Origin: an uncultured candidate division Zixibacteria bacterium
GTDB lineage: Bacteria; Zixibacteria; MSB-5A5; UBA10806
Direction of reading: 5' to 3'
Length of the DNA stretch: 64,000 nt
Assembly (NCBI GenBank): GCA_963801605.1
Contig: CAWDFP010000006.1
Coordinates: 1,024,001-1,088,000 of the forward strand
Made by a program: the position numbers and the translations under genes. Shown piece after piece: positions 3,003 to 50,323 of the stretch; position 1 is the stretch's first letter; the number at the start of each line of letters is the position of its first letter. The notes beneath the pieces were generated by a model. It saw only the letters and a program-made list of their open reading frames with translations. It did not search any database and had not been told where the DNA came from.

Positions 3003-4169
3003 GTGAGTTTCGCGGGCAACCTGAAAACCGTATCTCCGGCTGATATTTTCCAGCTTATTGTCACTTCCAAAAAAACAGGTGCCCTGTCTATAGTTAAAAG
3101 CGATTCCCGCCGCTTCATTTACTTCCAGGATGGTCTTCTCACATTTGCCTCATCCTCCGACAAACAGGATATGTTCGGAAGCCTGCTGCTTAAAAAAGGA
3201 AGAATTTCCAAACCTGAGCTTGATGCCATTCTTAAAGAAAAACATGATGGCAAGAAAATCGGCCAGGTATTGGTTGAAAAAGGAATCCTAACCCGGGATG
3301 AGGTTTTCGACTGTCTCAAGATGCAGATCGATGAGATAGTCTATAGTCTTTTCGGATGGAAAGACGGCGACTTCGAATTCATCGAGGGAAAGGCGCCGCC
3401 GCCCGATGTCATTCTTACCGAGCTCAATCCCATGAATATGATCATGGAGGGGATGCGGCGTATTGATGAATGGACCGAACTAAAAAAGATTCTGCCCTCC
3501 GATGATGCCCAAATCGAGCTGGTGGTTGATCCGGTCATGAGAAACGAAGAGATGAGACTTACCAAGGATGAGTTTATCGCCCTGGCGTTGATCGGATCTG
3601 GCAAGAGATTCTCGAAAGTTGTGGAAGAAAGTTACCTGGACCAGTTCCAAACCTGCAAGGCGCTGGCTAATTTGTTACAGATGGGGCTTATCAAGGTCGG
3701 GAAAATTCTTCCGGTAATTAAAAACTCAGAGCAGGAACAGAAAAATTTAGTCGAACTATTAGCCCAGGTTTATATCAGCAATCTGGCGCTTATCTTCTCC
3801 GGATTAAAAGAAAAGCTGGGTAACAAAGGCGACCGGGTGATATTCGAGACGTTCGAAGAAAATAAAATGTTTTATCCGATCTTAAGCCAGTTTTTTACCG
3901 CTCGCGATGGTACCATTAATTTTGAGCACTTCCTTGAATTCTATAAAAGATTGCCGGAAGAGGCTCGAATCTGGCGCATTGTTTCAAATTTCAACTCCCT
4001 CCTCAACGATTACCTCGTGGCTGTCCAAAGGCATCTCGGAAATAAGATTTACCGTCGAGTGGTTTCCGAAATTAAAATAAATATCCAAAACAGTATTAAT
4101 CGCAATCGCCAATTGGCCTTAAAGTACGGGCTCGAAGAAGAATTTTCGCGAGCCTTGCGAGATAGATAA
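3003..4169 (+). CDS. DUF4388 (PATAN-like) domain protein with internal MshEN-like helical repeats
   Basis: N-terminal 'GNLKTVSPADIFQLI..KKTGAL..IYFQDG..FGWKDGDFEF' is typical of DUF4388. Repeats 'FGSLLLKKGRI' and 'IGQVLVEKGIL'. Confidence 0.85.
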   Translation: MSFAGNLKTVSPADIFQLIVTSKKTGALSIVKSDSRRFIYFQDGLLTFASSSDKQDMFGSLLLKKGRISKPELDAILKEKHDGKKIGQVLVEKGILTRDEVFDCLKMQIDEIVYSLFGWKDGDFEFIEGKAPPPDVILTELNPMNMIMEGMRRIDEWTELKKILPSDDAQIELVVDPVMRNEEMRLTKDEFIALALIGSGKRFSKVVEESYLDQFQTCKALANLLQMGLIKVGKILPVIKNSEQEQKNLVELLAQVYISNLALIFSGLKEKLGNKGDRVIFETFEENKMFYPILSQFFTARDGTINFEHFLEFYKRLPEEARIWRIVSNFNSLLNDYLVAVQRHLGNKIYRRVVSEIKINIQNSINRNRQLALKYGLEEEFSRALRDR

Positions 4170-4173
4170 TTTC

Positions 4174-4539
4174 ATGAAGAAATCCTTCGTTGTTCTTATT
4201 ACCGGGCTTGTCCTGGCGGATCATGGACACGCTAATGCCATGACATCCACAGGATATGCTATACTGGGCGAGTCATTTTCGCTGGTATTGTTATTGGCCT
4301 GTCTCATTATTGCATCGCTTATTATAACGGAGCTTCGAGGCGGGAAATTTGGCCAGCCCTGGATTTTTATGGCCGCCGGATTTGCCGTTGCTCTGGCAGC
4401 CAGCGTAATCCATTTACTCGATCTGAAGGCAATTATCTTTGGCGATTATGATCTCAGGCCTATTTACCTCGCGGCCCGAACTGCTTCAATGCTTTTAATC
4501 CTGGTTGGCCTTTTTTTCTATAAGAAGGGGCTGCAATAA
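4174..4539 (+). CDS. Small membrane protein (signal-like N-terminus plus about 3 TM helices)
   Basis: Hydrophobic segments around 'LRGGKFGQPW'. Starts 4 nt after the previous stop. Confidence 0.7.
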   Translation: MKKSFVVLITGLVLADHGHANAMTSTGYAILGESFSLVLLLACLIIASLIITELRGGKFGQPWIFMAAGFAVALAASVIHLLDLKAIIFGDYDLRPIYLAARTASMLLILVGLFFYKKGLQ

Positions 4540-4614: not shown

Positions 4615-5439
4615 ATGATTGATGTCATTGAAATAGACGAACGTATCGCCAAGTGCGAAAAGATTCTCGATATGAATCCGCAAAGCCAGATTTTTGCGGC
4701 TTTGGCCGATGCCTATCGCAAAAGGGGAGATTTGGCCAGAGCTCAGGAAATTTGCAATGATGGGCTGAAACTTCACCCGTCTTACGCATCGGCTCGAGTC
4801 GTCATGGCTAAAATTCAATTGGCCAGAGGGAATTATGATTTGGCCTCCGATGAACTTAAAATGGCCATCCTCTCAACCGGACGCACCAGGGCGATCGATG
4901 TTTTAGAAGCTGAGATATTAATCAGACGCGGCCAGAAAGCCGAGGCCTGCCTTATCCTCCAGGGACTCGAGGCAACTGACCCCGATGACGAAAATGTAAA
5001 GAATCTCAAAGCGCTTCTCGATGAAAAACCGAACCCGGATAAGATCGAACTGCCTGCGGATTTATCGCTTAAGCTCGAAAGAGCCGATCAAAAGAGCCTT
5101 ACGCTTGCTCATGCCTTAAGTGTTCTTAAAGTTATGCCGCGCGTTATGGGCGTGATTGCAGTTGGATCTAACGGGCTTCTCCTTGATGGCCGTTTCGACA
5201 GCCATAATGTTAAAGAGGAATTTGCGGCTCTTTCAAAAGGCTTTGTTGATTGGGCAACACAGGGAAGCCAGCGCATCGATTTCGGGGCGGTAAATGAGGT
5301 GCTGATTGAAACCACTTCGTCGAAAATCTGGATTTTCGATAAAATAAAGTATCTGCTCGTAGTTTTTACCAGAGATGATGTCAGCATGGGTGCTCTTAAA
5401 CTGAAAATAGATGATCTCTTTAGAGACATTGTTATTTGA
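4615..5439 (+). CDS. TPR + C-terminal Roadblock/LC7 domain protein
   Basis: TPR-like 'NPQSQIFAALADAYRKRGDLARA' at the N-terminus. Roadblock pattern 'VMGVIAVGSNGLLL..FAAL..EVLIET..LLVVFTRDDVSMGALK' at the C-terminus. RBS GAGG. Confidence 0.82.
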   Translation: MIDVIEIDERIAKCEKILDMNPQSQIFAALADAYRKRGDLARAQEICNDGLKLHPSYASARVVMAKIQLARGNYDLASDELKMAILSTGRTRAIDVLEAEILIRRGQKAEACLILQGLEATDPDDENVKNLKALLDEKPNPDKIELPADLSLKLERADQKSLTLAHALSVLKVMPRVMGVIAVGSNGLLLDGRFDSHNVKEEFAALSKGFVDWATQGSQRIDFGAVNEVLIETTSSKIWIFDKIKYLLVVFTRDDVSMGALKLKIDDLFRDIVI

Positions 5440-5448
5440 GGAATCGAT

Positions 5449-5898
5449 ATGGCCCGAGCAAAAGCAGTTAAAAAAAACCAGGACAAATTTCAAATGGCTG
5501 TCAACTATTTGATCGAGTACGATGGGGTAAGGGGAGTCGCTATCGCCGATCCCGAAGGGCTGGTTATAGCTCGCGGCGGAAACGATTTCGATGCCGAGCT
5601 CCATTGTGCCCTGGCGCAGCAAATTACAGCATCCTTAGATGCTATATTGCCGAAATTAATAACTCCGGGAATCGAACATCTTATTGTCAAAACCCCGCAG
5701 GATTGGCTGACCGTGGCTCGCTCGGCAACCTTTCTTCTGATTGTGGTGGCCAAACGAAATGCCGATGAGCTTCTTAATATCCGAATCGGCAAAGCGCTTG
5801 AAATGATTTCATCTCATCTAAAAGGCAAATATCAACCGGCCTTTTCGACTGACCCATCCGGAGTCAAGGCGAAAAAAATGGAGGCTATAAATGTATGA
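5449..5898 (+). CDS. Roadblock/LC7 domain protein
   Basis: 'GVRGVAIADPEGLVIA' roadblock signature; RBS GAGG. Confidence 0.85.
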   Translation: MARAKAVKKNQDKFQMAVNYLIEYDGVRGVAIADPEGLVIARGGNDFDAELHCALAQQITASLDAILPKLITPGIEHLIVKTPQDWLTVARSATFLLIVVAKRNADELLNIRIGKALEMISSHLKGKYQPAFSTDPSGVKAKKMEAINV

Positions 5899-6229
5899 TG
5901 TTTTAGGCGATCTCAACAAGACCTCCGGAGTCAAAGGCTCTATGCTGGTCGGCAACGACGGTATCATTATCGCCGCAGATCTCGATGCCAAGCTCGAAGA
6001 CGAAACCGTAGGCGCGATGGCAGCTTCGATTATGACCAACATCGGCAAAGCTCTGGGTCGGCTTAAACAACATAACCTGGAAAGAGTAACCATCGAGGCT
6101 GATGCAGGAAAAATATTCCTATGCGAGGCCGGAGTTGGGATCCTGGCAGTTGTAACTGAGCCGCAGGTTAATGTCGGATTAGTCAGGTTGGAGATTAAAA
6201 ACGCCGTTTCGCAAATTAAGGGGATGTAG
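5891..6229 (+). CDS. Roadblock/LC7 domain protein
   Basis: 'SGVKGSMLVGNDGIIIA..VGAMAASI..VNVGLVRLEIK'; overlaps the upstream stop; RBS GGAGG. Confidence 0.9.
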   Translation: MYDVLGDLNKTSGVKGSMLVGNDGIIIAADLDAKLEDETVGAMAASIMTNIGKALGRLKQHNLERVTIEADAGKIFLCEAGVGILAVVTEPQVNVGLVRLEIKNAVSQIKGM

Positions 6230-6242
6230 AGAGGAATTTGGG

Positions 6243-7451
6243 ATGGTATCCATTAATTACGCTTTCAGGGAGATTATCTCCAAAATAGTTTACTATGGTC
6301 CGGGCCTCTCAGGGAAGACTACTAACCTTCAGTATGTCTTTAAAAAGATTCCCAGTGAAACCCGCGGCGAGCTCATCAGCCTGGCAACTGACGCCGACAG
6401 GACTCTATATTTCGATTTTCTGCCTGTCAATGTTGGAACGATACAGGGTTTTGCCACCAAATTCCAACTCTATACGGTTCCCGGCCAGGTGTATTACAAC
6501 GCCACGCGCAAGCTTGTTCTACGGGGCGTGGATGGCTTGGTATTCGTGGCAGATAGCCAACTGGCCAAGATGGATGAGAATCTTGAATCGCTCCATAATC
6601 TAAAAGACAACCTCGAGGAATATGGGTACGATATGTGCCAGATTCCTTTGGTTATACAATACAATAAACGTGATTTACCGGATATCGTATCAATCGCCGA
6701 CCTTGAGAAAGCTCTTAACCCGGGCGGCTTGCCGTACTTTGAGGCCGTGGCCGTCACGGGCGATGGAGTGTTTAAGACACTTAAAGCCATAAGTAAAATC
6801 GTTCTGGATCAGGTAAAGGCCAAAAGAATGGAACCGGCCAAGGTTATTAAAACGCAAACGCAACCTCAACCAGCGCCCAAGGTGCCCGTGGGAGTAGCCC
6901 CGGCCGCCAGCCCGCGAGCAGTTAATAATGAAGTACTTGTTGCTCAACCAAAACCTGAGATTATTAGCCGGGGAGTCGAGGTGCCGGAATCTAAGCTAAA
7001 ATCCGATGATAAGATTGGTACCAGCCAGGTTGAATCTGCAATCATTTCCGATATACCGGGCAGAGTGGTGGTATCTGACGCGCAGGATGATAAACCGCAG
7101 CCTCATGAGGAATCAGTGCATCAGACAGCCACCGAAGAGACAACCGAAAAGGCTGTCATTCGGGATGAAGCACCAGAGCACGGTACGAAGAGCATCGTTG
7201 TTAGCCAGGATTTTGGTCTTACCAACGAATATAGCGTGGTTGACACCAAAGAAGAGGCTTCCCAGGGCAAGGGATGGCTTTCGTATAATGACAACAAATC
7301 AGTCAGCGAAGATGATAATGACGAAATAGAAGACATTAGTCTAAAAAGCGCTTTGCCGTTACGCAAACCGCAAATGGCTGAGAGCCGTAAGGTAAAGAAT
7401 AAAACAGGGAAGTTTAATATCTTCGGCTGGTTCAAGAAATCGAAAAAATAA
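6243..7451 (+). CDS. mglA: MglA-family small GTPase with a ~200-aa C-terminal extension
   Basis: 'KIVYYGPGLSGKTTNL' (G1), 'DRTLYFDF' (intrinsic Arg), 'TVPGQ' (G3), 'NKRD' (G4), 'FEAVA' (G5). Confidence 0.95.
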   Translation: MVSINYAFREIISKIVYYGPGLSGKTTNLQYVFKKIPSETRGELISLATDADRTLYFDFLPVNVGTIQGFATKFQLYTVPGQVYYNATRKLVLRGVDGLVFVADSQLAKMDENLESLHNLKDNLEEYGYDMCQIPLVIQYNKRDLPDIVSIADLEKALNPGGLPYFEAVAVTGDGVFKTLKAISKIVLDQVKAKRMEPAKVIKTQTQPQPAPKVPVGVAPAASPRAVNNEVLVAQPKPEIISRGVEVPESKLKSDDKIGTSQVESAIISDIPGRVVVSDAQDDKPQPHEESVHQTATEETTEKAVIRDEAPEHGTKSIVVSQDFGLTNEYSVVDTKEEASQGKGWLSYNDNKSVSEDDNDEIEDISLKSALPLRKPQMAESRKVKNKTGKFNIFGWFKKSKK

Positions 7452-7477
7452 TACCTGGCGATAAAAGGAGGTTTAAG

Positions 7478-7963
7478 TTGTCTCAAGAACAACAGGTCCT
7501 CTATGAGGATCAAATTCAGCAGATCGATCAGGTCCTGAGCCGGATCATCAGGGAAGCGGAGGCTAAATGCGCGCTCCTGGTGGATAAGGACGGGCACCTC
7601 ATCACGCGGCAGGGGTTTACCCATACTCTCGATACCACGGCCCTGGCTGCTCTTCTGGCGGGAAGCTTCGCCTCCACGAAGGAGATTGCTCGCCTGGTTG
7701 GCGAACCGGAGTTTTCGGTTCTTTTCCATCAGGGGAAAAAAGATCATATCCATATCTCACTTATCGACGAGCGCACCATTATGGTGGTGATTTTCGACGA
7801 CCGCACCACGATCGGTATGATCAGGCTCTATGCCAAAGAAATCGGAGAGACTTTAAAAACTATTCTGTCTGGCACATCGGAAAGCAAACATGATGATCTT
7901 GAATTGGGCAAGGATTTCTCGGATAGCGCTGAAGCTAAACTCAACGATATTTTCCAGGAATAG
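7478..7963 (+). CDS. mglB: MglB (roadblock-domain GAP of MglA)
   Basis: 'LLVDKDGHLI..DTTALAALLAG..IARLVGEPEFSVLFHQG..VIFDDRTTIGMIRL' plus acidic C-terminal helix '..LNDIFQE'. TTG start with AAGGAGG RBS. Confidence 0.93.
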   Translation: MSQEQQVLYEDQIQQIDQVLSRIIREAEAKCALLVDKDGHLITRQGFTHTLDTTALAALLAGSFASTKEIARLVGEPEFSVLFHQGKKDHIHISLIDERTIMVVIFDDRTTIGMIRLYAKEIGETLKTILSGTSESKHDDLELGKDFSDSAEAKLNDIFQE

Positions 7964-8011: not shown

Positions 8012-9706
8012 ATGGCAATAGAGCTCGGTAAGATACTTGTCAAAGCCGGCAAAATCACAGAAGTCCAACTTCAAAAGGCGCTGGAAATGCAAAAAAACGG
8101 CGCCGGTAAGCTGGGTGAGATCTTGGTTAAAATTGGCGCTATTACCGATGAAAATGTCATCTCGGAATTTATCGGAAAGCAGCTTAATATTGGTGCGTTA
8201 CGCTTAACCGATATTGAGCTCAATCCCGATATTGTTAAGCTTATCCCTCAGGATATCGCCCGTAAATTTAACGTTATTGCCGTTTCCAAACTTGGCAAGA
8301 CCCTGATTGTCGCCATTTCCGATCCTAATAATATTTATGTTCTCGATGCCATTAAATTTATCACCGGCTGCAATATTCAGCCGGTCATTTCGCCCGAAAA
8401 TACCATCCAGAGCGCTATCGAAACTTATTATGGTGATACCAGCGGCATCAATGAAATCATTAAGGGGATGAGCGCGAACTGGAGGTAGTCGAGGAGGCGG
8501 AAGATGACCCCATCGGAACAGGATCTGCAATCGCAGGTTCAGGATAAGCCTCTGGTGAAATTGGTCGATGGTATCATCGCCGATGCCATCAGAAAAGGCG
8601 CCTCAGATATTCATTTCGAAAGTTATGAAAAGCGCGTTCGGGTCCGTTATCGTATCGACGGCGTACTGCAGGAGATGGCTCCTATTCCGTTTAAATACCG
8701 GGCAGCCATCATTTCACGTATTAAGATTATGGCCGATCTCGATATTTCCGAGCGTCGATTACCGCAGGATGGCAGAATCAAGGTGAAGTTGGGCGAGCGC
8801 ACCATCGATCTTCGTGTTTCGGTTTTGCCAACAATTTTCGGCGAAAAGATCGTCATGAGAATTTTGGATCCCAAATCACTTATGATCGATCTGACCAAAC
8901 TTGGTTTTCCCGAGCTGGCGCTTGATAATTTTAGCAAAGCTATCAGTCTGCCTTATGGCATGATTCTGGTTACGGGGCCTACCGGATCCGGTAAAACTAC
9001 GACCCTGTATTCGGCCTTAAAGACGTTGAATACGATTGATGTTAATATTATGACTGCCGAAGATCCGGTCGAGTTCAATTTCGACGGTATTAATCAGGTA
9101 TTGGTTAGATCCGATATTGGCCTTACTTTTGCCGCCGCGCTACGCTCCTTCTTACGCCAGGACCCCGATATCATCATGGTGGGCGAGATTCGCGACGGCG
9201 AAACTGCCGATATTGCCATCAAGGCCGCCTTAACCGGTCACCTCGTATTTTCAACTCTGCATACCAATGACGCACCTTCGACCATCAACAGGCTGGTGGA
9301 TATGGGCGTACCCAGCTACCTGGTAGCGGCTTCTACAAAGTTAATCATGGCTCAAAGAATGGTGCGTAAAATCTGCACCTTCTGTAAACAGGAAGTGGCC
9401 ATTGACGCCCAAAATCGCCGATATACTTCGATTGGATACCGAAGAAACTAAATCAATGAAGCTATTCGAGGGAAAAGGCTGCAATCAATGTAATGGTACC
9501 GGGTTATTCCGGAAGAACCGGCCTTTTCGAAGTTATGCCGATATCACCGGCTATTGAAAAGATGATCGTCCTGAACGCGTCGACGGCCGAAATAAGGGCT
9601 CAGGCCATGAGCGAAGGGATGCTGACTCTTGCGTCACGCCGGGTTTGAAAAACTTCGCCTGGGGATCTCCTCGCTGGAAGAAATAGTAGCCGAGACTGCG
9701 GTATAA
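8012..9706 (+). CDS. pilB: Type IV pilus extension ATPase PilB (split by several indels)
   Basis: MshEN-type N-terminus, 'ERRLPQDG', Walker A 'GPTGSGKTT', 'LRQDPD', 'TGHLVFSTLHTN' and Cys pairs. Frame breaks near 8470, 9410, 9500-9530 and 9630; stop TAA at 9704-9706. Confidence 0.92.
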
Positions 9707-9759
9707 AAACTATAGTAGTTAAATTTATTGTCGATAATAAGTAAAGAGGTATAATTGAA

Positions 9760-10891
9760 ATGGTTACACTACGCGAATTACTCGAATTGATGGTTAAGCG
9801 CCGAGCCTCCGATCTTCATCTTACGGTTGGCGCTCCACCGGTTATTAGAATAGATGGCAAGCTCGTCAGAACCGACTACGAGATATTGACGCCTGATTTA
9901 ACCAAGAAGCTGGCTTATTCGATCATGAACGAAAGGCAGCGCCAGAAATTTGAGGAAAATTCGGAGCTCGATTTGTCTTTTGGAATTGAGCATCTATCTC
10001 GTTTCCGCTGTAACGTTTTCATGCAGCGAGGCAACGTAGCGGTAGCTTTGCGTCAGATTCCGTTCAAGGTTCTGACTTTTGAGGAACTTGGGTATTCCCG
10101 ATACGATTGTTAAATTAGCCGAACTGCCTCGTGGTCTGGTTCTTGTAACAGGTCCTACGGGCTCAGGCAAATCTACAACTCTTGCGGCTCTGATGGATAA
10201 AATAAATACCGAACGGCAACTGCACATAATAACCGTAGAAGATCCAATTGAGTATCTTCACCGCCATAAATCATCGCTTGTCAATCAGCGCGAAGTCCAT
10301 TCAGATACGAAGAGCTTTGCAGCTTCGCTTAAATATGCTCTTCGCCAGGATCCCGATGTGGTTCTGATCGGAGAAATGCGCGATCTGGAAACGATGGAAG
10401 CAGCCCTGACGATTTCCGAAACGGGCCACCTGGCGTTCGCCACGTTGCATACCAACTCCACCGCCGAAGCCATTAATCGTATTGTTGACGTATTTCCTCA
10501 TACGCAGCAGGAACAAGTACGAATCCAGCTTTCCTTTGTCTTGCAGGGAATTGTTACCCAGCAGCTTATCCCCAGGGTAAACGAGGGACGAGTTCTGGCC
10601 ATGGAAGTACTGATTGCTACACCTGCCGTCCGTGCCGTCATTCGTGATGATAAGATTCATCAGATTTATTCATTGATTCAGGCCGGACATAAGTATGGTA
10701 TGAAGACCATGAACCAATCGCTACTAGAGCTTTATACGAAAAAGAAAATAACATATAGTGATGCCCTTGCCAGATCGACAAACGCCTCAGAGTTCGAGGA
10801 GATGGCGCGGCAGGGTAATCTTCGTGGCGATGCTACCAGCAGAAACTTGGATGCCACGGGTAGAAACTTAGCTGAACAGATTGAGAGGTAA
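9760..10891 (+). CDS. pilT: Type IV pilus retraction ATPase PilT (one indel near 10090)
   Basis: 'ASDLHLTVGAPP', 'GPTGSGKSTT', 'TVEDPIE', 'ETGHL..TLHTN', and 'AVRAVIRD' (AIRNLIRE-like). Confidence 0.93.
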
Positions 10892-10894
10892 GGC

Positions 10895-12094
10895 ATGCCT
10901 GTCTACGATTACAAAGGCAAATCCCTCGGAGGCAAGCAGGTCCAGGGTGAACTCAAGGCCAAAAACAGAGTTGAGCTCGAGAGGCTCCTGCGCTCCAATA
11001 AGATCTTAGTAACGAGCATTTCCAAAAGGCCGTCGCAAATTAAGATTCGCTTTGGAAGCGGTATTAAGAAGATCGACATCTCACGCTTTACTCGCCAGTT
11101 TGCCACTATGATCTCAGCCGGTCTTCCTATGGTGCAGTGCCTGGAAATACTTGCAACCCAGATGGAGTCTCCCGAATTTCGAAAAATAATTAACGAGGTT
11201 AAGGAGTCTGTGCAGTCGGGCTCAACCTTATCGGAGGCTATGAGCAGGCATAAGAAAGCCTTCGACGATCTCTACGTCAATATGGTAGAGGCCGGTGAGG
11301 TCGGTGGTGCTCTCGATACCATCTTGATACGTCTCGCCTCTTACCGCGAAAAAGCCGATAGGCTGGTTCGCAAAGTAAAAGGCGCCATGGTTTATCCTGT
11401 GGTGGTTATGATCGTAGCCATAGGCGTGACATTCGCGATGTTGCGATTCATCGTACCTGTATTCGCCAAAATGTTTTCCGGATTAAATGCCGCTTTGCCG
11501 GCGCCTACTCAATTCGTATTGAATATTTCCAATTTTCTGCGGGATAACTCCCTGATTCTTCTGGCAGGAGTCGCCGGCATCATCATAGCATATAAGCTTT
11601 TTGTTAGGAAACCAAACGGCCGACTGGCGGTTGATAAATTTAAACTTCGCATGCCGCTTCTTGGAGATCTCATCAGGAAAAGTTCGGTCTCGCGTTTTAC
11701 CCGGACTCTGGCGACACTGCTTTCTTCGGGTGTTTCAATTCTGGACGCCTTAAACATCACTGCAAAAACATCGGGCAATATGGTCCTGCAAAATGCTATC
11801 AAGCAGGCCATGCTCTCTATCGCCGAAGGTGAAACGATTACCGCTCCCCTTAAGGATTCCGGAGTATTCCCGCCAATGGTAACCCAGATGATTTCGGTTG
11901 GTGAGAAGACGGGCGGAATGGATGAGATGCTGACCAAGATCGCCGACTTCTACGATGAAGAAGTCGATGCGTCAGTGGCGGCTTTGACATCAATTATCGA
12001 GCCGGTCATTATTGTATTCATGGGCGGTATGATAGGCGCTATTTTGATAGCCATGTATCTACCCATGTTCGATATCGTCGGAAAGATTAACTAG
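10895..12094 (+). CDS. pilC: Type IV pilus platform protein PilC (GspF family)
   Basis: 'FTRQFATMISAGLP', 'AGEVGGALD', 'GEKTGGMDEML', 'AMYLPMF'. Confidence 0.95.
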   Translation: MPVYDYKGKSLGGKQVQGELKAKNRVELERLLRSNKILVTSISKRPSQIKIRFGSGIKKIDISRFTRQFATMISAGLPMVQCLEILATQMESPEFRKIINEVKESVQSGSTLSEAMSRHKKAFDDLYVNMVEAGEVGGALDTILIRLASYREKADRLVRKVKGAMVYPVVVMIVAIGVTFAMLRFIVPVFAKMFSGLNAALPAPTQFVLNISNFLRDNSLILLAGVAGIIIAYKLFVRKPNGRLAVDKFKLRMPLLGDLIRKSSVSRFTRTLATLLSSGVSILDALNITAKTSGNMVLQNAIKQAMLSIAEGETITAPLKDSGVFPPMVTQMISVGEKTGGMDEMLTKIADFYDEEVDASVAALTSIIEPVIIVFMGGMIGAILIAMYLPMFDIVGKIN

Positions 12095-12116
12095 AGGATT
12101 TCGGCCTCTTACTTAC

Positions 12117-12150
12117 AAAGGGCTTCTTTTTCCAATGAAAGAAGCCCTTT
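12117..12150. terminator. Intrinsic terminator-like hairpin after pilC
   Basis: 13-bp perfect inverted repeat aaagggcttcttt / aaagaagcccttt. Confidence 0.7.
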
Positions 12151-12156
12151 CTTAAT

Positions 12157-13869
12157 ATGAAACTATCATCCAAATATTTCCAAATTGAGCCTATCGATAA
12201 ACGGGCCTGGTTTCTAATACTTCGCCTGATAATCCCGGCATTATTGGTCGGCTCAGGGCTGGAGTTTTTACGTCCTATCGCCTTCAATTATGCACTCCTG
12301 GTGATCTATGGTTTATTGGCAATAGTGCTGTTTATCTACACGCTCGCTACCCGAAATACTACCGGGACTTTTATCAGGTCGCTTATTATTGCCCTGATAT
12401 CGGGAGAACTGTTAATTGAAGGATTACTGGTCAATCAGGTCGGCGCCAACTTCTCGCCGTTTATTCTGTTTTTTATTATCACCATTGTCACGGCTGCCAT
12501 GTTTTTCCATCTGATCGGCTCTATCGTGGTTGCATCTCTGGCCGGGCTCCTATATTCGCTTCCGATATTTTTTAATCTATCTACAATCTATGAGGGCTTG
12601 ATTGAACCCGCGAGGTTGGCTGGAATCGGACTTTCATCGGACGAAGCTTTCTATACGGTATTCCTGCACCTTTGTTTATTCTATATCTCCGCCTTTATTG
12701 CCGGATATTTGGCGCAAAACTTGTTACTTGCTTCACGCGAATTAAGCCAGGTTCGACTTGAGACCAATGAAATTTTGGAGCAGATGCACTCCGGCCTGTT
12801 AACCATCGATGGCGAAGGCCGCATAATATATTTTAATCGGGCCGCCAGCGAAATATTGGCAGTAGATCACCTGCGTGCCAAGGGGACCTATGTTGAGGAT
12901 ATATTTCATTCCGGCCTGACCGATTTTTCTCAAAAGATATTAAATGCCCTGCAAAATGGCCGTTCTGAGATTCGCGCCGAAATAAATATCAAGCATCCAA
13001 CCAAGGGCATCATTCCCATCGGTCTGACATCATCAGTGCTGCGGGATGATGATGGGCATACTCGCGGGGTGATTGCCGTTTTCCAGGATCTGACCGAAGC
13101 TAAAAAACTCGAGGCTCGTCTTCGGGCGTCCGATAGACTGGCGGCGGTTGGACGCCTGGCCGCGGGGATCGCACACGAGATTCGAAATCCGCTGGCATCG
13201 ATTTCGGGATCGGTAGAGGTCTTGAAAGATGATCTTCATCTAACTGATGGTGATGATCTCAGACTACTCGAACTTATCCTGAAAGAGTCCTCACGTTTGA
13301 ATACCATCCTGACAGATTTTCTCAACTTCGCCCGTGTCAGCAGAGTATCATCCGGTCAGTGCAATCTATCGTCGGCAATCCTTGAAGTCGTGGCGCTCGC
13401 GTCGGCGCATCAACAACCGGGCCAGAAGATTTGCATTACCCAGGAAATTCATCGTCCTAACATCTTCATTCAGGGAGGCGAGGATCAGATCAAGCAGATT
13501 CTCTGGAATTTAATTCTAAACGCATTTCAGGCTCTCAATGAAAACGGCGGCGAAATCTGCGTGGCCACCCGCGAATTGCGCTCCCATGAGGGTTCTCCAA
13601 TAGTGCGCCTGGAAGTAGCCGACAACGGCCCCGGGATACCTTCCGATCTTAAAGAAAAGATTTTCGAACCCTTCTTCTCGACAAAAGATGACGGCACCGG
13701 CCTGGGATTGCCAATGGTAGGACGAATCGTCGATTGCCTGGGCGGGCGAGTCGAGTTAGAATCGTCGCCTCTATGGAAAACAATATTCGCAATTTATCTC
13801 CCCGTGACAACCGGCAACATATCGAGCCAGGAAACGGCTCAACAAGAAGTATCAGCTTTAATAAACTGA
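12157..13869 (+). CDS. pilS: PilS-like membrane PAS sensor histidine kinase
   Basis: Multi-TM N-terminus, PAS region, H-box 'AAGIAHEIRNPL', N/G boxes 'NLILNA', 'DNGPGI', 'GTGLGL'. Sits directly after pilC. Confidence 0.8.
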   Translation: MKLSSKYFQIEPIDKRAWFLILRLIIPALLVGSGLEFLRPIAFNYALLVIYGLLAIVLFIYTLATRNTTGTFIRSLIIALISGELLIEGLLVNQVGANFSPFILFFIITIVTAAMFFHLIGSIVVASLAGLLYSLPIFFNLSTIYEGLIEPARLAGIGLSSDEAFYTVFLHLCLFYISAFIAGYLAQNLLLASRELSQVRLETNEILEQMHSGLLTIDGEGRIIYFNRAASEILAVDHLRAKGTYVEDIFHSGLTDFSQKILNALQNGRSEIRAEINIKHPTKGIIPIGLTSSVLRDDDGHTRGVIAVFQDLTEAKKLEARLRASDRLAAVGRLAAGIAHEIRNPLASISGSVEVLKDDLHLTDGDDLRLLELILKESSRLNTILTDFLNFARVSRVSSGQCNLSSAILEVVALASAHQQPGQKICITQEIHRPNIFIQGGEDQIKQILWNLILNAFQALNENGGEICVATRELRSHEGSPIVRLEVADNGPGIPSDLKEKIFEPFFSTKDDGTGLGLPMVGRIVDCLGGRVELESSPLWKTIFAIYLPVTTGNISSQETAQQEVSALIN

Positions 13870-49582: not shown

Positions 49583-50323
49583 TTAGCCGGATTTCTTTTG
49601 GGTAAGTTTATCCTGTCGGAAAAGCTTCTTGAAAAAGAGCTTCCAGACTCCGAAAACCGCCTCGTAGACAATCTTTTTGGACATTTTGGATGTTCCTGCC
49701 CGCCTATCGATAAATAAGATCGGCATTTCCTTTATCCTGAAACCGCCGCGCCAGACAAAGAAATTCATTTCTATCTGGAATCCATAACCATTCGATTTTA
49801 TTTTCCTCAGGTCCAGCCATTCCAGTACTTCACGTCGGAAGCATTTAAAGCCGCCGGTTGGGTCCTTGATCGGCATTCCGGTTATAACGCGCACATAAAT
49901 CGATGCAAAATAGGAAAGCAGCAGACGGCTCATCGGCCAGTTGACAATCGAGATACCATTTGAGTAACGCGAGCCGATCACGAGATCGTTTTCTTTGATA
50001 TTTTCGCGAAAATCGCTGATATATTTGGGATCATGCGAGAAATCGGCATCCATCTCCATGAGATATCCAATTTGCGGCATGGCTAATCCGAATTTGAAAC
50101 CATCCACATAAGCGGTACCCAGGCCTAATTTACCGGGCCTTTTCAGGATATGTATTCGAGGTTCATTTGGCATCAGGCTTTCCACGATAGCCGCGGTGCC
50201 GTCCGGGGAATTATCGTCAATTATCAGTATCTCAATATCATTTCCCTGGGTCAGGACTTCCTCAATGATATGCCTGATATTTTCTTTTTCATTGTAAGTA
50301 GGAATGCAGACTAGAATATTCAT
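49583..50323 (-). CDS. Polyprenol monophosphomannose synthase (GT2, DPM1-like)
   Basis: 'IPTYNE', 'DDNSPDGT', 'EMDADFSH', 'TGGFKCFR', 'GTSKMS'. Confidence 0.92.
   Translation of the reverse strand: MNILVCIPTYNEKENIRHIIEEVLTQGNDIEILIIDDNSPDGTAAIVESLMPNEPRIHILKRPGKLGLGTAYVDGFKFGLAMPQIGYLMEMDADFSHDPKYISDFRENIKENDLVIGSRYSNGISIVNWPMSRLLLSYFASIYVRVITGMPIKDPTGGFKCFRREVLEWLDLRKIKSNGYGFQIEMNFFVWRGGFRIKEMPILFIDRRAGTSKMSKKIVYEAVFGVWKLFFKKLFRQDKLTQKKSG

Follow-up and report, generated by a model that had tools for sequence, protein, structure and literature searches.

The MglA protein of this Zixibacteria bacterium carries a tail of 207 residues behind its G domain. Judged by its motifs, the 402-amino-acid protein is a Group 1 MglA GTPase with intact catalytic motifs and a predicted GTPase activity. 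Genome comparisons place the tailed form as the rule across the Zixibacteria phylum, and substitution ratios indicate that the tail is under purifying selection. The tailed MglA is a real, phylum-wide variant of a known switch, in a form that is apparently undescribed. The tail is predicted to be flexible and ends in a basic-aromatic peptide, and we predict that it likely leashes MglA to the inner membrane.

The tailed mglA gene and its orthologues

The gene lies in the window, which is the whole stretch of 64,000 nucleotides that was analysed. Its features are as follows.

6243..7451, + strand: mglA, tailed form, 402 aa (P0001); a single open frame, with homology to MglA structures and with orthologues
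6243..6827, + strand: G domain, residues 1-195; aligned to PDB 6h17 and folded in the AlphaFold model
6828..7337, + strand: hypervariable linker, residues 196-365, Pro/Ala-rich and then acidic, net charge -16, predicted to be disordered from AlphaFold, column identity and composition
7062..7079, + strand: first linker motif, with a VVVS core, at residues 274-279; conserved in 90/120 homologues, identity peak 0.69, in its own order only
7134..7157, + strand: second linker motif, with an EETTE core, at residues 298-305; conserved in 99/120 homologues, identity peak 0.60, in its own order only
7365..7385, + strand: pre-anchor motif KPQMAES, residues 375-381; kept in 111/120 homologues
7386..7451, + strand: polybasic-aromatic end, residues 382-402, with a hydrophobic core F391-F397; a predicted membrane anchor, from homologues and hydrophobic moment
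7465..7471, + strand: mglB ribosome-binding site AAGGAGG, from the sequence

Residues 3-192 align to M. xanthus MglA (PDB 6h17) with an E-value of 1e-78, and T. thermophilus MglA matches the same G domain with an E-value of 5e-70. An earlier note on this DNA had described an intact G domain of ~195 aa, and the alignment bears it out. The G1 motif (residues 19-26), Arg53-Thr54, the G3 motif TVPGQ (residues 78-82) and the G4 motif NKRD (residues 141-144) are all intact, and their columns are invariant or nearly so in an alignment of 128 sequences. Group 1 MglAs are defined by an Arg next to the G2 Thr, according to passages of PMC4316618. Both R53-T54 and TVPGQ are invariant across the 128 sequences. 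Further marks of Group 1 are also present: G1 and G4 are whole in the 402-aa MglA, and the gene that follows encodes a coupled MglB, which matches M. xanthus MglB with an E-value of 2e-32. At 402 aa, the protein exceeds the limit of ≤240 aa for the ‘small’ single-domain MglA set (Wuichet 2014).

The frame ends with a stop codon at 7449-7451, and mglB starts 26 bases on with a TTG at 7478. Related sequences of 98%, 87% and 78% identity show no frame breaks when aligned along the entire tail. The dN/dS ratio is 0.014-0.068 in the G domain (seven pairs), 0.02-0.25 in the last 35 codons (7/7 pairs) and 0.20-0.28 in the linker (5/7 pairs, the other two being saturated). In most pairs, selection on the end is about that on the G domain.

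The G domain was matched in 269 of the 285 Zixibacteria genomes. Frame lengths were taken from 150 of the 274 G-domain matches in the phylum; in 147 of these 150 the open frame has 311-661 aa, and the remaining three frames are shorter and run off contig edges. Among the matches listed, a Zixibacteria genome usually has a single MglA match, which is the tailed form. The tail is 104-454 aa long, with a median of 184, in 70 distinct complete orthologues, a set that excludes four contig-cut rows and a Nitrospiraceae row. The Nitrospiraceae MglA among the related records has 195 aa. A record labelled Ignavibacteria groups within the Zixibacteria MglA clade in the G-domain tree.

The tail could also be read as a sequencing or read-through artefact, and the assembly does have indel-type breaks just downstream, in pilB and pilT. 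However, independent genomes retain the tail in frame and under selection, and the orthologues rule this reading out; its chance of being right is close to nil. The earlier note had called an indel artefact unlikely, which agrees with the 147 long frames among the 150 listed, the whole-tail alignments, the dN/dS ratios and the restriction of the breaks to pilB and pilT. It had also named orthologues ending at ~200 aa as a finding that would refute its claim, and the tails of the complete orthologues leave the claim unrefuted.

The linker and the terminal peptide

The tail after residue 195 consists of a 170-aa linker (residues 196-365) and a 37-aa basic-aromatic end (residues 366-402). Residues 196-240 contain 20% Pro, 16% Ala and 9% Gln. 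The following stretch, residues 241-365, is acidic with a net charge of -18, and residues 366-402 carry a net charge of +11. The earlier note had read a continuation of ~200 aa, Pro/Ala/Gln-rich and then acidic, up to the terminal peptide that it quoted, and the one frame 6243-7451 indeed contains all of it. In the AlphaFold model, made with the 128-sequence alignment, the pLDDT of the linker is mostly below 50 and there is no secondary structure. Column identity in the linker is mostly 0.2-0.5, and the tail has no NCBIfam match.

Short motifs are conserved within the tail, suggesting that it is more than a spacer. In addition to the two linker motifs, the pre-anchor motif stands out in the 128 sequences: P376 is invariant and M378, A379 and S381 are conserved in at least 90%. 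Its P-x-M core occurs in the last 45 residues of 46/70 orthologues versus 67/1673 ORFs of the genome and is present in many families of the phylum. It also has the top pLDDT of the tail (66) and sits just ahead of the predicted anchor. The EETT motif may resemble FHA-binding phosphosites. By their conservation, the tail motifs are likely candidates for extra docking sites. Another motif, [RK]P[YF]x?P, is found in 20/70 Zixibacteria tails, where 500 shuffles gave 1.3 on average and never more than 5, for a pattern that was drawn up post hoc from data already seen. It lies within several Zixibacteria tails and at the end of 111/119 Fibrobacter-type tails, and is absent from the tail of the 402-aa MglA. 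We note it as a candidate conserved docking motif (proteins P0393-P0511; loci L077-L094, L105 and L106).

The basic-aromatic end is retained in 118 of 120 homologues, which are 221-704 aa long; the two exceptions have 265 and 334 aa. The earlier note had proposed checking whether orthologues keep the terminal peptide despite a variable linker, and across the 104-454 aa range of tail lengths they do. The last 20 residues have a net charge of +8, reached by only 3/1673 ORFs of the genome. The hydrophobic moment is 0.70 over 8 residues and 0.56 over 11 residues, compared with 0.69 and 0.48 for the E. coli MinD end, which was taken from the K-12 record. Used as the sole test, the moment fails to set the end apart from the genome background, since 468/1673 ORFs have an 11-residue moment as high near their ends. 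The moment of MinD itself is equally ordinary against this background. Thus, of the ‘basic amphipathic’ end claimed in the earlier note, the basic part stands and the amphipathic part is only moderately supported.

A joint test required a net charge of at least +5, at least three Phe/Trp and a moment of at least 0.45. It was passed by 49/70 orthologues (21/70 fail) versus 6/1673 genome ORFs, the tailed MglA among these six, with thresholds that were chosen post hoc and kin that are not independent. A 246-aa ORF at 49583-50323 on the - strand is among the five other genome ORFs with such an end.

Over the 15 other families compared, the letters and spacing of the end differ and the basic-then-hydrophobic pattern stays. 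In several sister families the last residues are almost a copy of those of E. coli MinD (close in f9, f13 and f15-f17), and in f9 they agree with the core of the E. coli MinD end at 7/8 positions. A profile built from 43 ends of the other families ranked the E. coli MinD end first of 1674, weakly (E 0.25). The end of the 402-aa MglA itself came only 40th and is less MinD-like in sequence than the ends of its relatives. As in MinD-type targeting sequences, the end is basic and located at the extreme C-terminus. A search for minD in the same genome gave no match above the family cut-off, and the end of the FtsA encoded there is basic-aromatic. The membrane-targeting-like character proposed in the earlier note is thus favoured by the position, charge and moment of a MinD-type anchor and by the near-copy MinD ends in sister families; against it, AlphaFold predicts no helix at the tail end.

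The hypervariable region of Ras is ~20-25 aa long. The linker here is far longer, and there is no cysteine in the tail, so the prenylation motif of lipidated eukaryotic Ras/Rab tails is absent. The eukaryote-like layout suggested for the protein therefore holds as an analogy only.

The pilus locus and the RomR-like protein

The gene order around mglA is comEC, DUF4388, small hydrophobic protein, TPR-roadblock, two roadblocks, mglA, mglB, pilB, pilT, pilC and a PilS-like kinase. The genes flanking mglA are listed here.

3003..4169, + strand: DUF4388 protein with an MshE-type c-di-GMP-binding motif (PF14332; NF053729 at 38.2 bits, just above the cut-off of 38)
4174..4539, + strand: small hydrophobic protein, 121 aa, without a family match
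4615..5439, + strand: TPR plus weak roadblock protein, from domain search
5449..5898, + strand: roadblock protein 2 (PF03259, E 3e-8)
5891..6229, + strand: roadblock protein 3 (PF03259, E 2.5e-14)
7478..7963, + strand: mglB, 161 aa (PDB 6izw, E 2e-32; Robl_LC7)
8012..13869, + strand: pilB (MshEN plus ATPase), pilT, pilC and PilS-like kinase, from domain and profile matches

MglB aligns to M. xanthus MglB along its full length, including the C-terminal segment. We take DUF4388 to be PATAN-type. The small hydrophobic protein was recognised beside the module in family-level relatives only, and for the TPR protein there were matches to generic TPRs only. MglC was considered as an identity for roadblock proteins 2 and 3. 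A comparison with solved structures matched neither of them to M. xanthus MglC, and we therefore give this name to neither. The motif in the DUF4388 protein and the MshEN domain of PilB (8012-8488) give a hint of c-di-GMP input to the module. Within 8012-10891, in-frame stops break pilB, which gives a single tblastn frame with two stops, and one frameshift breaks pilT; these are likely assembly indels. Locus L083 has like breaks in pilB, pilT and pilC.

Of 56 Zixibacteria-clade loci, 54 have mglB as the recognised gene that follows mglA, and the two others stop at contig edges. pilB then follows in 53/56 loci. By this comparison, the PATAN-roadblock-mglA-mglB-pilBTCS block is conserved. Family f3 (two genomes, 96 and 88% complete; L290/G024 and L291/G033) retains pilB, pilT and pilC without the mglA-mglB module: comEC lies ~290 bases before pilB, and the queries used found no match to mglA or mglB in either genome. 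The module therefore appears to come and go as one unit at the pilus locus, and an optional unit would fit a regulator rather than a structural part. It is gene order alone that suggests the link between the MglA module and pili.

In M. xanthus, RomR is the polar targeting factor of MglA, and MglA is diffuse without RomR (PMC3441718, in part), raising the question of whether the tail replaces RomR. A RomR-C profile was built from receiver-linker-RomR-C proteins pulled from metagenomes with a short motif; these proteins agree with the RomR description in passages of PMC3441718. The profile was found in only 5/285 Zixibacteria genomes, weakly, with a Nitrospiraceae control at E 3.8e-8, which at first backed the replacement. 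However, the five matches are receiver-linker-helix proteins (one with a masked N-terminus), and they led to a like protein in the present genome at C6:976993-978066 (L253:4994-6067), which is 52 kb upstream of mglA and outside the window. This protein consists of a receiver domain, a disordered linker with a conserved aromatic-acidic motif and a helical end, the arrangement of the RomR subfamily. In a tree of the receiver domain (115 columns), it groups with the five matches (98/90) on a long branch that is sister to RomR (99/90). The invariant Trp and Pro of RomR-C are absent from the C6:976993-978066 protein and the RomR-C profile misses it; we therefore call it RomR-like only. It is present in 23/23 genomes of this order, in 2/2 genomes of f11 and in 26 of the 61 genomes searched overall. 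The tail is therefore not simply RomR's replacement. That reading was overturned by the divergent RomR-like protein, is largely refuted for this order, and strikes us as very improbable.

A predicted membrane leash, alternatives and relatives

Tailed MglAs are not confined to Zixibacteria. The best 150 representatives of a library of 1.84 billion proteins are all longer than 220 aa; long forms are probably over-represented in this set, since clusters are broken up by divergent tails. By rough rules, 50 of the 150 ends are basic amphipathic-type, 20 transmembrane-type, 38 beta-rich, 6 an acidic motif and 36 unclassed. A G-domain tree of 159 rows (FastTree, midpoint-rooted, with only six short MglAs from one lineage) placed the Zixibacteria (support 99), transmembrane (98) and second amphipathic (98) groups in separate clades. 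The tree included 19 of the 20 transmembrane-ended MglAs, and all of these group in a single clade (support 98) close to that of Zixibacteria. Cluster look-ups gave only two taxa for 20 distant proteins. One member of the second amphipathic group is labelled Chitinivibrionales, and the transmembrane class is labelled Planctomycetota and Myxococcota (one cluster member plus atlas clusters). The clade in which a disordered linker leads to a transmembrane-type helix at the C-terminus (P0137, P0166, P0197, P0200 and others) contains candidate tail-anchored bacterial GTPases. Another long-MglA clade (P0145, P0151, P0163 and others) has a small beta-rich C-terminal segment and a Lys in place of the usual Ala-Thr at the start of switch I. 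A plasmid search gave one Deinococcus MglA. The 119 Fibrobacter-type tailed MglAs end in an acidic stretch and LRPYVPKKK; only 2/119 pass the basic-aromatic test, and the ends of this type are non-amphipathic. Given the Fibrobacter, beta-rich and unclassed ends, a tail by itself need not mean an anchor.

For the Zixibacteria tail, a membrane leash is likely because its moment equals that of MinD and, in a sister clade of MglA, a transmembrane helix forms the end. In the mechanism that we consider probable, charge and the insertion of aromatic residues would hold the terminal peptide at the anionic inner membrane, reach would come from the acidic linker, and the GTP switch would act on membrane-side partners to place pilus activity. 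The Lys/Arg residues in the last 37 (+11) would bind anionic lipids, and F391, I393, F394, W396 and F397 would insert in the form of a short helix induced by the membrane. The acidic linker would keep off the membrane, lending the G domain its reach. Membrane binding would be largely standing and not GTP-switched, because the end has more charge and a higher aromatic content than the E. coli MinD anchor, which is weak. In two dimensions, the GTP switch would then act on MglB, the extra roadblocks, the RomR-like protein and regulators of the pilus motor, and its output would set where type IV pili are active. Precedents are the MinD anchor for C-terminal membrane targeting (PMC6803595, in part), archaeal ArcoA and the control of pili by MglA-SgmX (PMC7668184, in part).

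Two other readings of the tail have to be weighed against this mechanism. The tail may mainly be a protein-docking arm, in which the motifs and the aromatic end bind partners at the pole or the pilus base, with only a minor part for lipid binding. Several motifs are conserved although the linker around them drifts, the [RK]P[YF]x?P motif recurs in Zixibacteria tails and in Fibrobacter-type tails that have no amphipathic end, and RomR likewise combines a variable linker with a conserved end (PMC3441718, in part). However, the letters and spacing of the end vary while its charge and hydrophobic pattern stay, which would fit a lipid surface better than a fixed pocket. A transmembrane end in the sister clade and the absence of [RK]P[YF]x?P from the 402-aa MglA also argue against a docking arm, and we regard it as unlikely, with an appreciable chance nonetheless. 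Alternatively, the end may be a membrane anchor that is gated as in MinD or FlhG: a single copy would be weak or hidden, and avidity would come from assembly with MglB, roadblocks or effectors that depends on GTP, so that the protein goes on and off the membrane. On its own, a single anchor of E. coli MinD is too weak, and in monomeric FlhG the anchor is hidden (PMC6803595, in part). The hydrophobic core here, of only ~7-9 residues, and the conserved P-x-M just before the anchor, with the highest pLDDT of the tail, are consistent with gating. The end is, however, far more basic than that of MinD, which has three Glu, a linker of free length (104-454 residues) gives no obvious coupling to the nucleotide site, and the transmembrane-ended relatives cannot cycle. 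Gating is somewhat less probable still than docking. The standing membrane leash remains our preferred reading.

The protein resembles MglA/MglB of M. xanthus and T. thermophilus (PDB 6h17, 6izw and 3t12) in its G domain, the Arg by the G2 Thr, TVPGQ, the adjoining full-length MglB and the link to type IV pili. It differs in the 207-residue tail with its basic-aromatic end. The gene order also differs: here mglA precedes mglB, with three more roadblock genes and a DUF4388 gene, directly before pilB-pilT-pilC-pilS. Unlike M. xanthus RomR, the RomR-like protein here lacks the RomR-C Trp.

Long MglAs have been recorded. Passages of PMC4316618 (Wuichet and Sogaard-Andersen 2014) state that proteins >240 aa, 39 of 488 MglA-clade sequences, were excluded from analysis. 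Because the standard survey dropped it at this cut-off, the phylum-wide form went unexamined. Table S2 of that paper gives long Group 1 MglAs by length only: Fibrobacter 313 aa, Anaeromyxobacter 335-356, Corallococcus 378, Geobacter 270-289, and M. xanthus 298 and 372. These share with the Zixibacteria protein a Group 1 G domain in a longer protein, and the Fibrobacter entry also shares the mglA-then-mglB order. They are mostly paralogues beside a short MglA, whereas the Zixibacteria tailed form is usually the sole match; Fibrobacter-type tails end in a motif other than the Zixibacteria basic-aromatic end, and the myxobacterial and Geobacter entries are known by length only. The passages of PMC4316618 contain no description of the long-MglA extensions. 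The M. xanthus 372-aa Group 1 MglA adjoins a PATAN gene (MXAN_2693 neighbourhood; PMC4316618, Table S2), and a literature search on its presumed locus tag, MXAN_2694, found no paper. Likewise, no paper on a tailed or membrane-anchored MglA was found in a literature that was searched without most subscription papers.

The closest likeness of the end is to the C-terminal targeting sequence of MinD (and of FtsA and FlhG), which is also extreme C-terminal, basic and aromatic, with a similar hydrophobic moment. Unlike in MinD, the anchor candidate is on a TRAFAC GTPase, follows a long linker and is more basic, and its own end is a weaker sequence match. K-Ras4B is a eukaryotic Ras-family GTPase with a polybasic C-terminus. 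Unlike the eukaryotic Ras family, the tail here has no lipidation cysteine and a much longer linker, and there is no evidence of a common origin of the tails. RIT1/RIT2 have the same succession of G domain, variable linker and basic membrane-binding end, the latter predicted here (PMC13565119, in part). Among prokaryotic Ras-superfamily GTPases, Asgard Arf-like GTPases (PMC11914678, in part) and archaeal ArcoA bind membranes by means of an amphipathic helix, which in ArcoA is N-terminal (residues 1-20), unlike the C-terminal end here (bioRxiv 10.64898/2026.07.23.738820, in part).

A broader view, which we hold only tentatively, is that tailed MglAs make up a large class of bacterial Ras-like switches that has been overlooked and whose members bring an address of their own. 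Their disordered arm may bear an exchangeable end module, which would be an amphipathic peptide in Zixibacteria and Chitinivibrionales-like proteins, a transmembrane helix in the clade labelled Planctomycetota and Myxococcota, a short motif in Fibrobacter and a small beta domain elsewhere. Bacteria may thus have evolved C-terminally membrane-anchored Ras-type GTPases independently, and the Zixibacteria set of a membrane-bound GTPase, a GAP and multiple roadblocks might be a self-organising polarity system of the pilus motor.

MglA is the model bacterial Ras-like polarity switch. It is treated as cytosolic, a term that passages of bioRxiv 10.64898/2026.07.23.738820 apply to the family, and as placed at the poles by its partners. 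Long MglA paralogues occur in cultured, genetically tractable bacteria. If our prediction is true, a built-in membrane leash would change the diffusion and patterning of the switch and bring it nearer to Min-type and eukaryotic Ras systems, and C-terminal membrane anchoring of Ras-superfamily GTPases would not be confined to eukaryotes.
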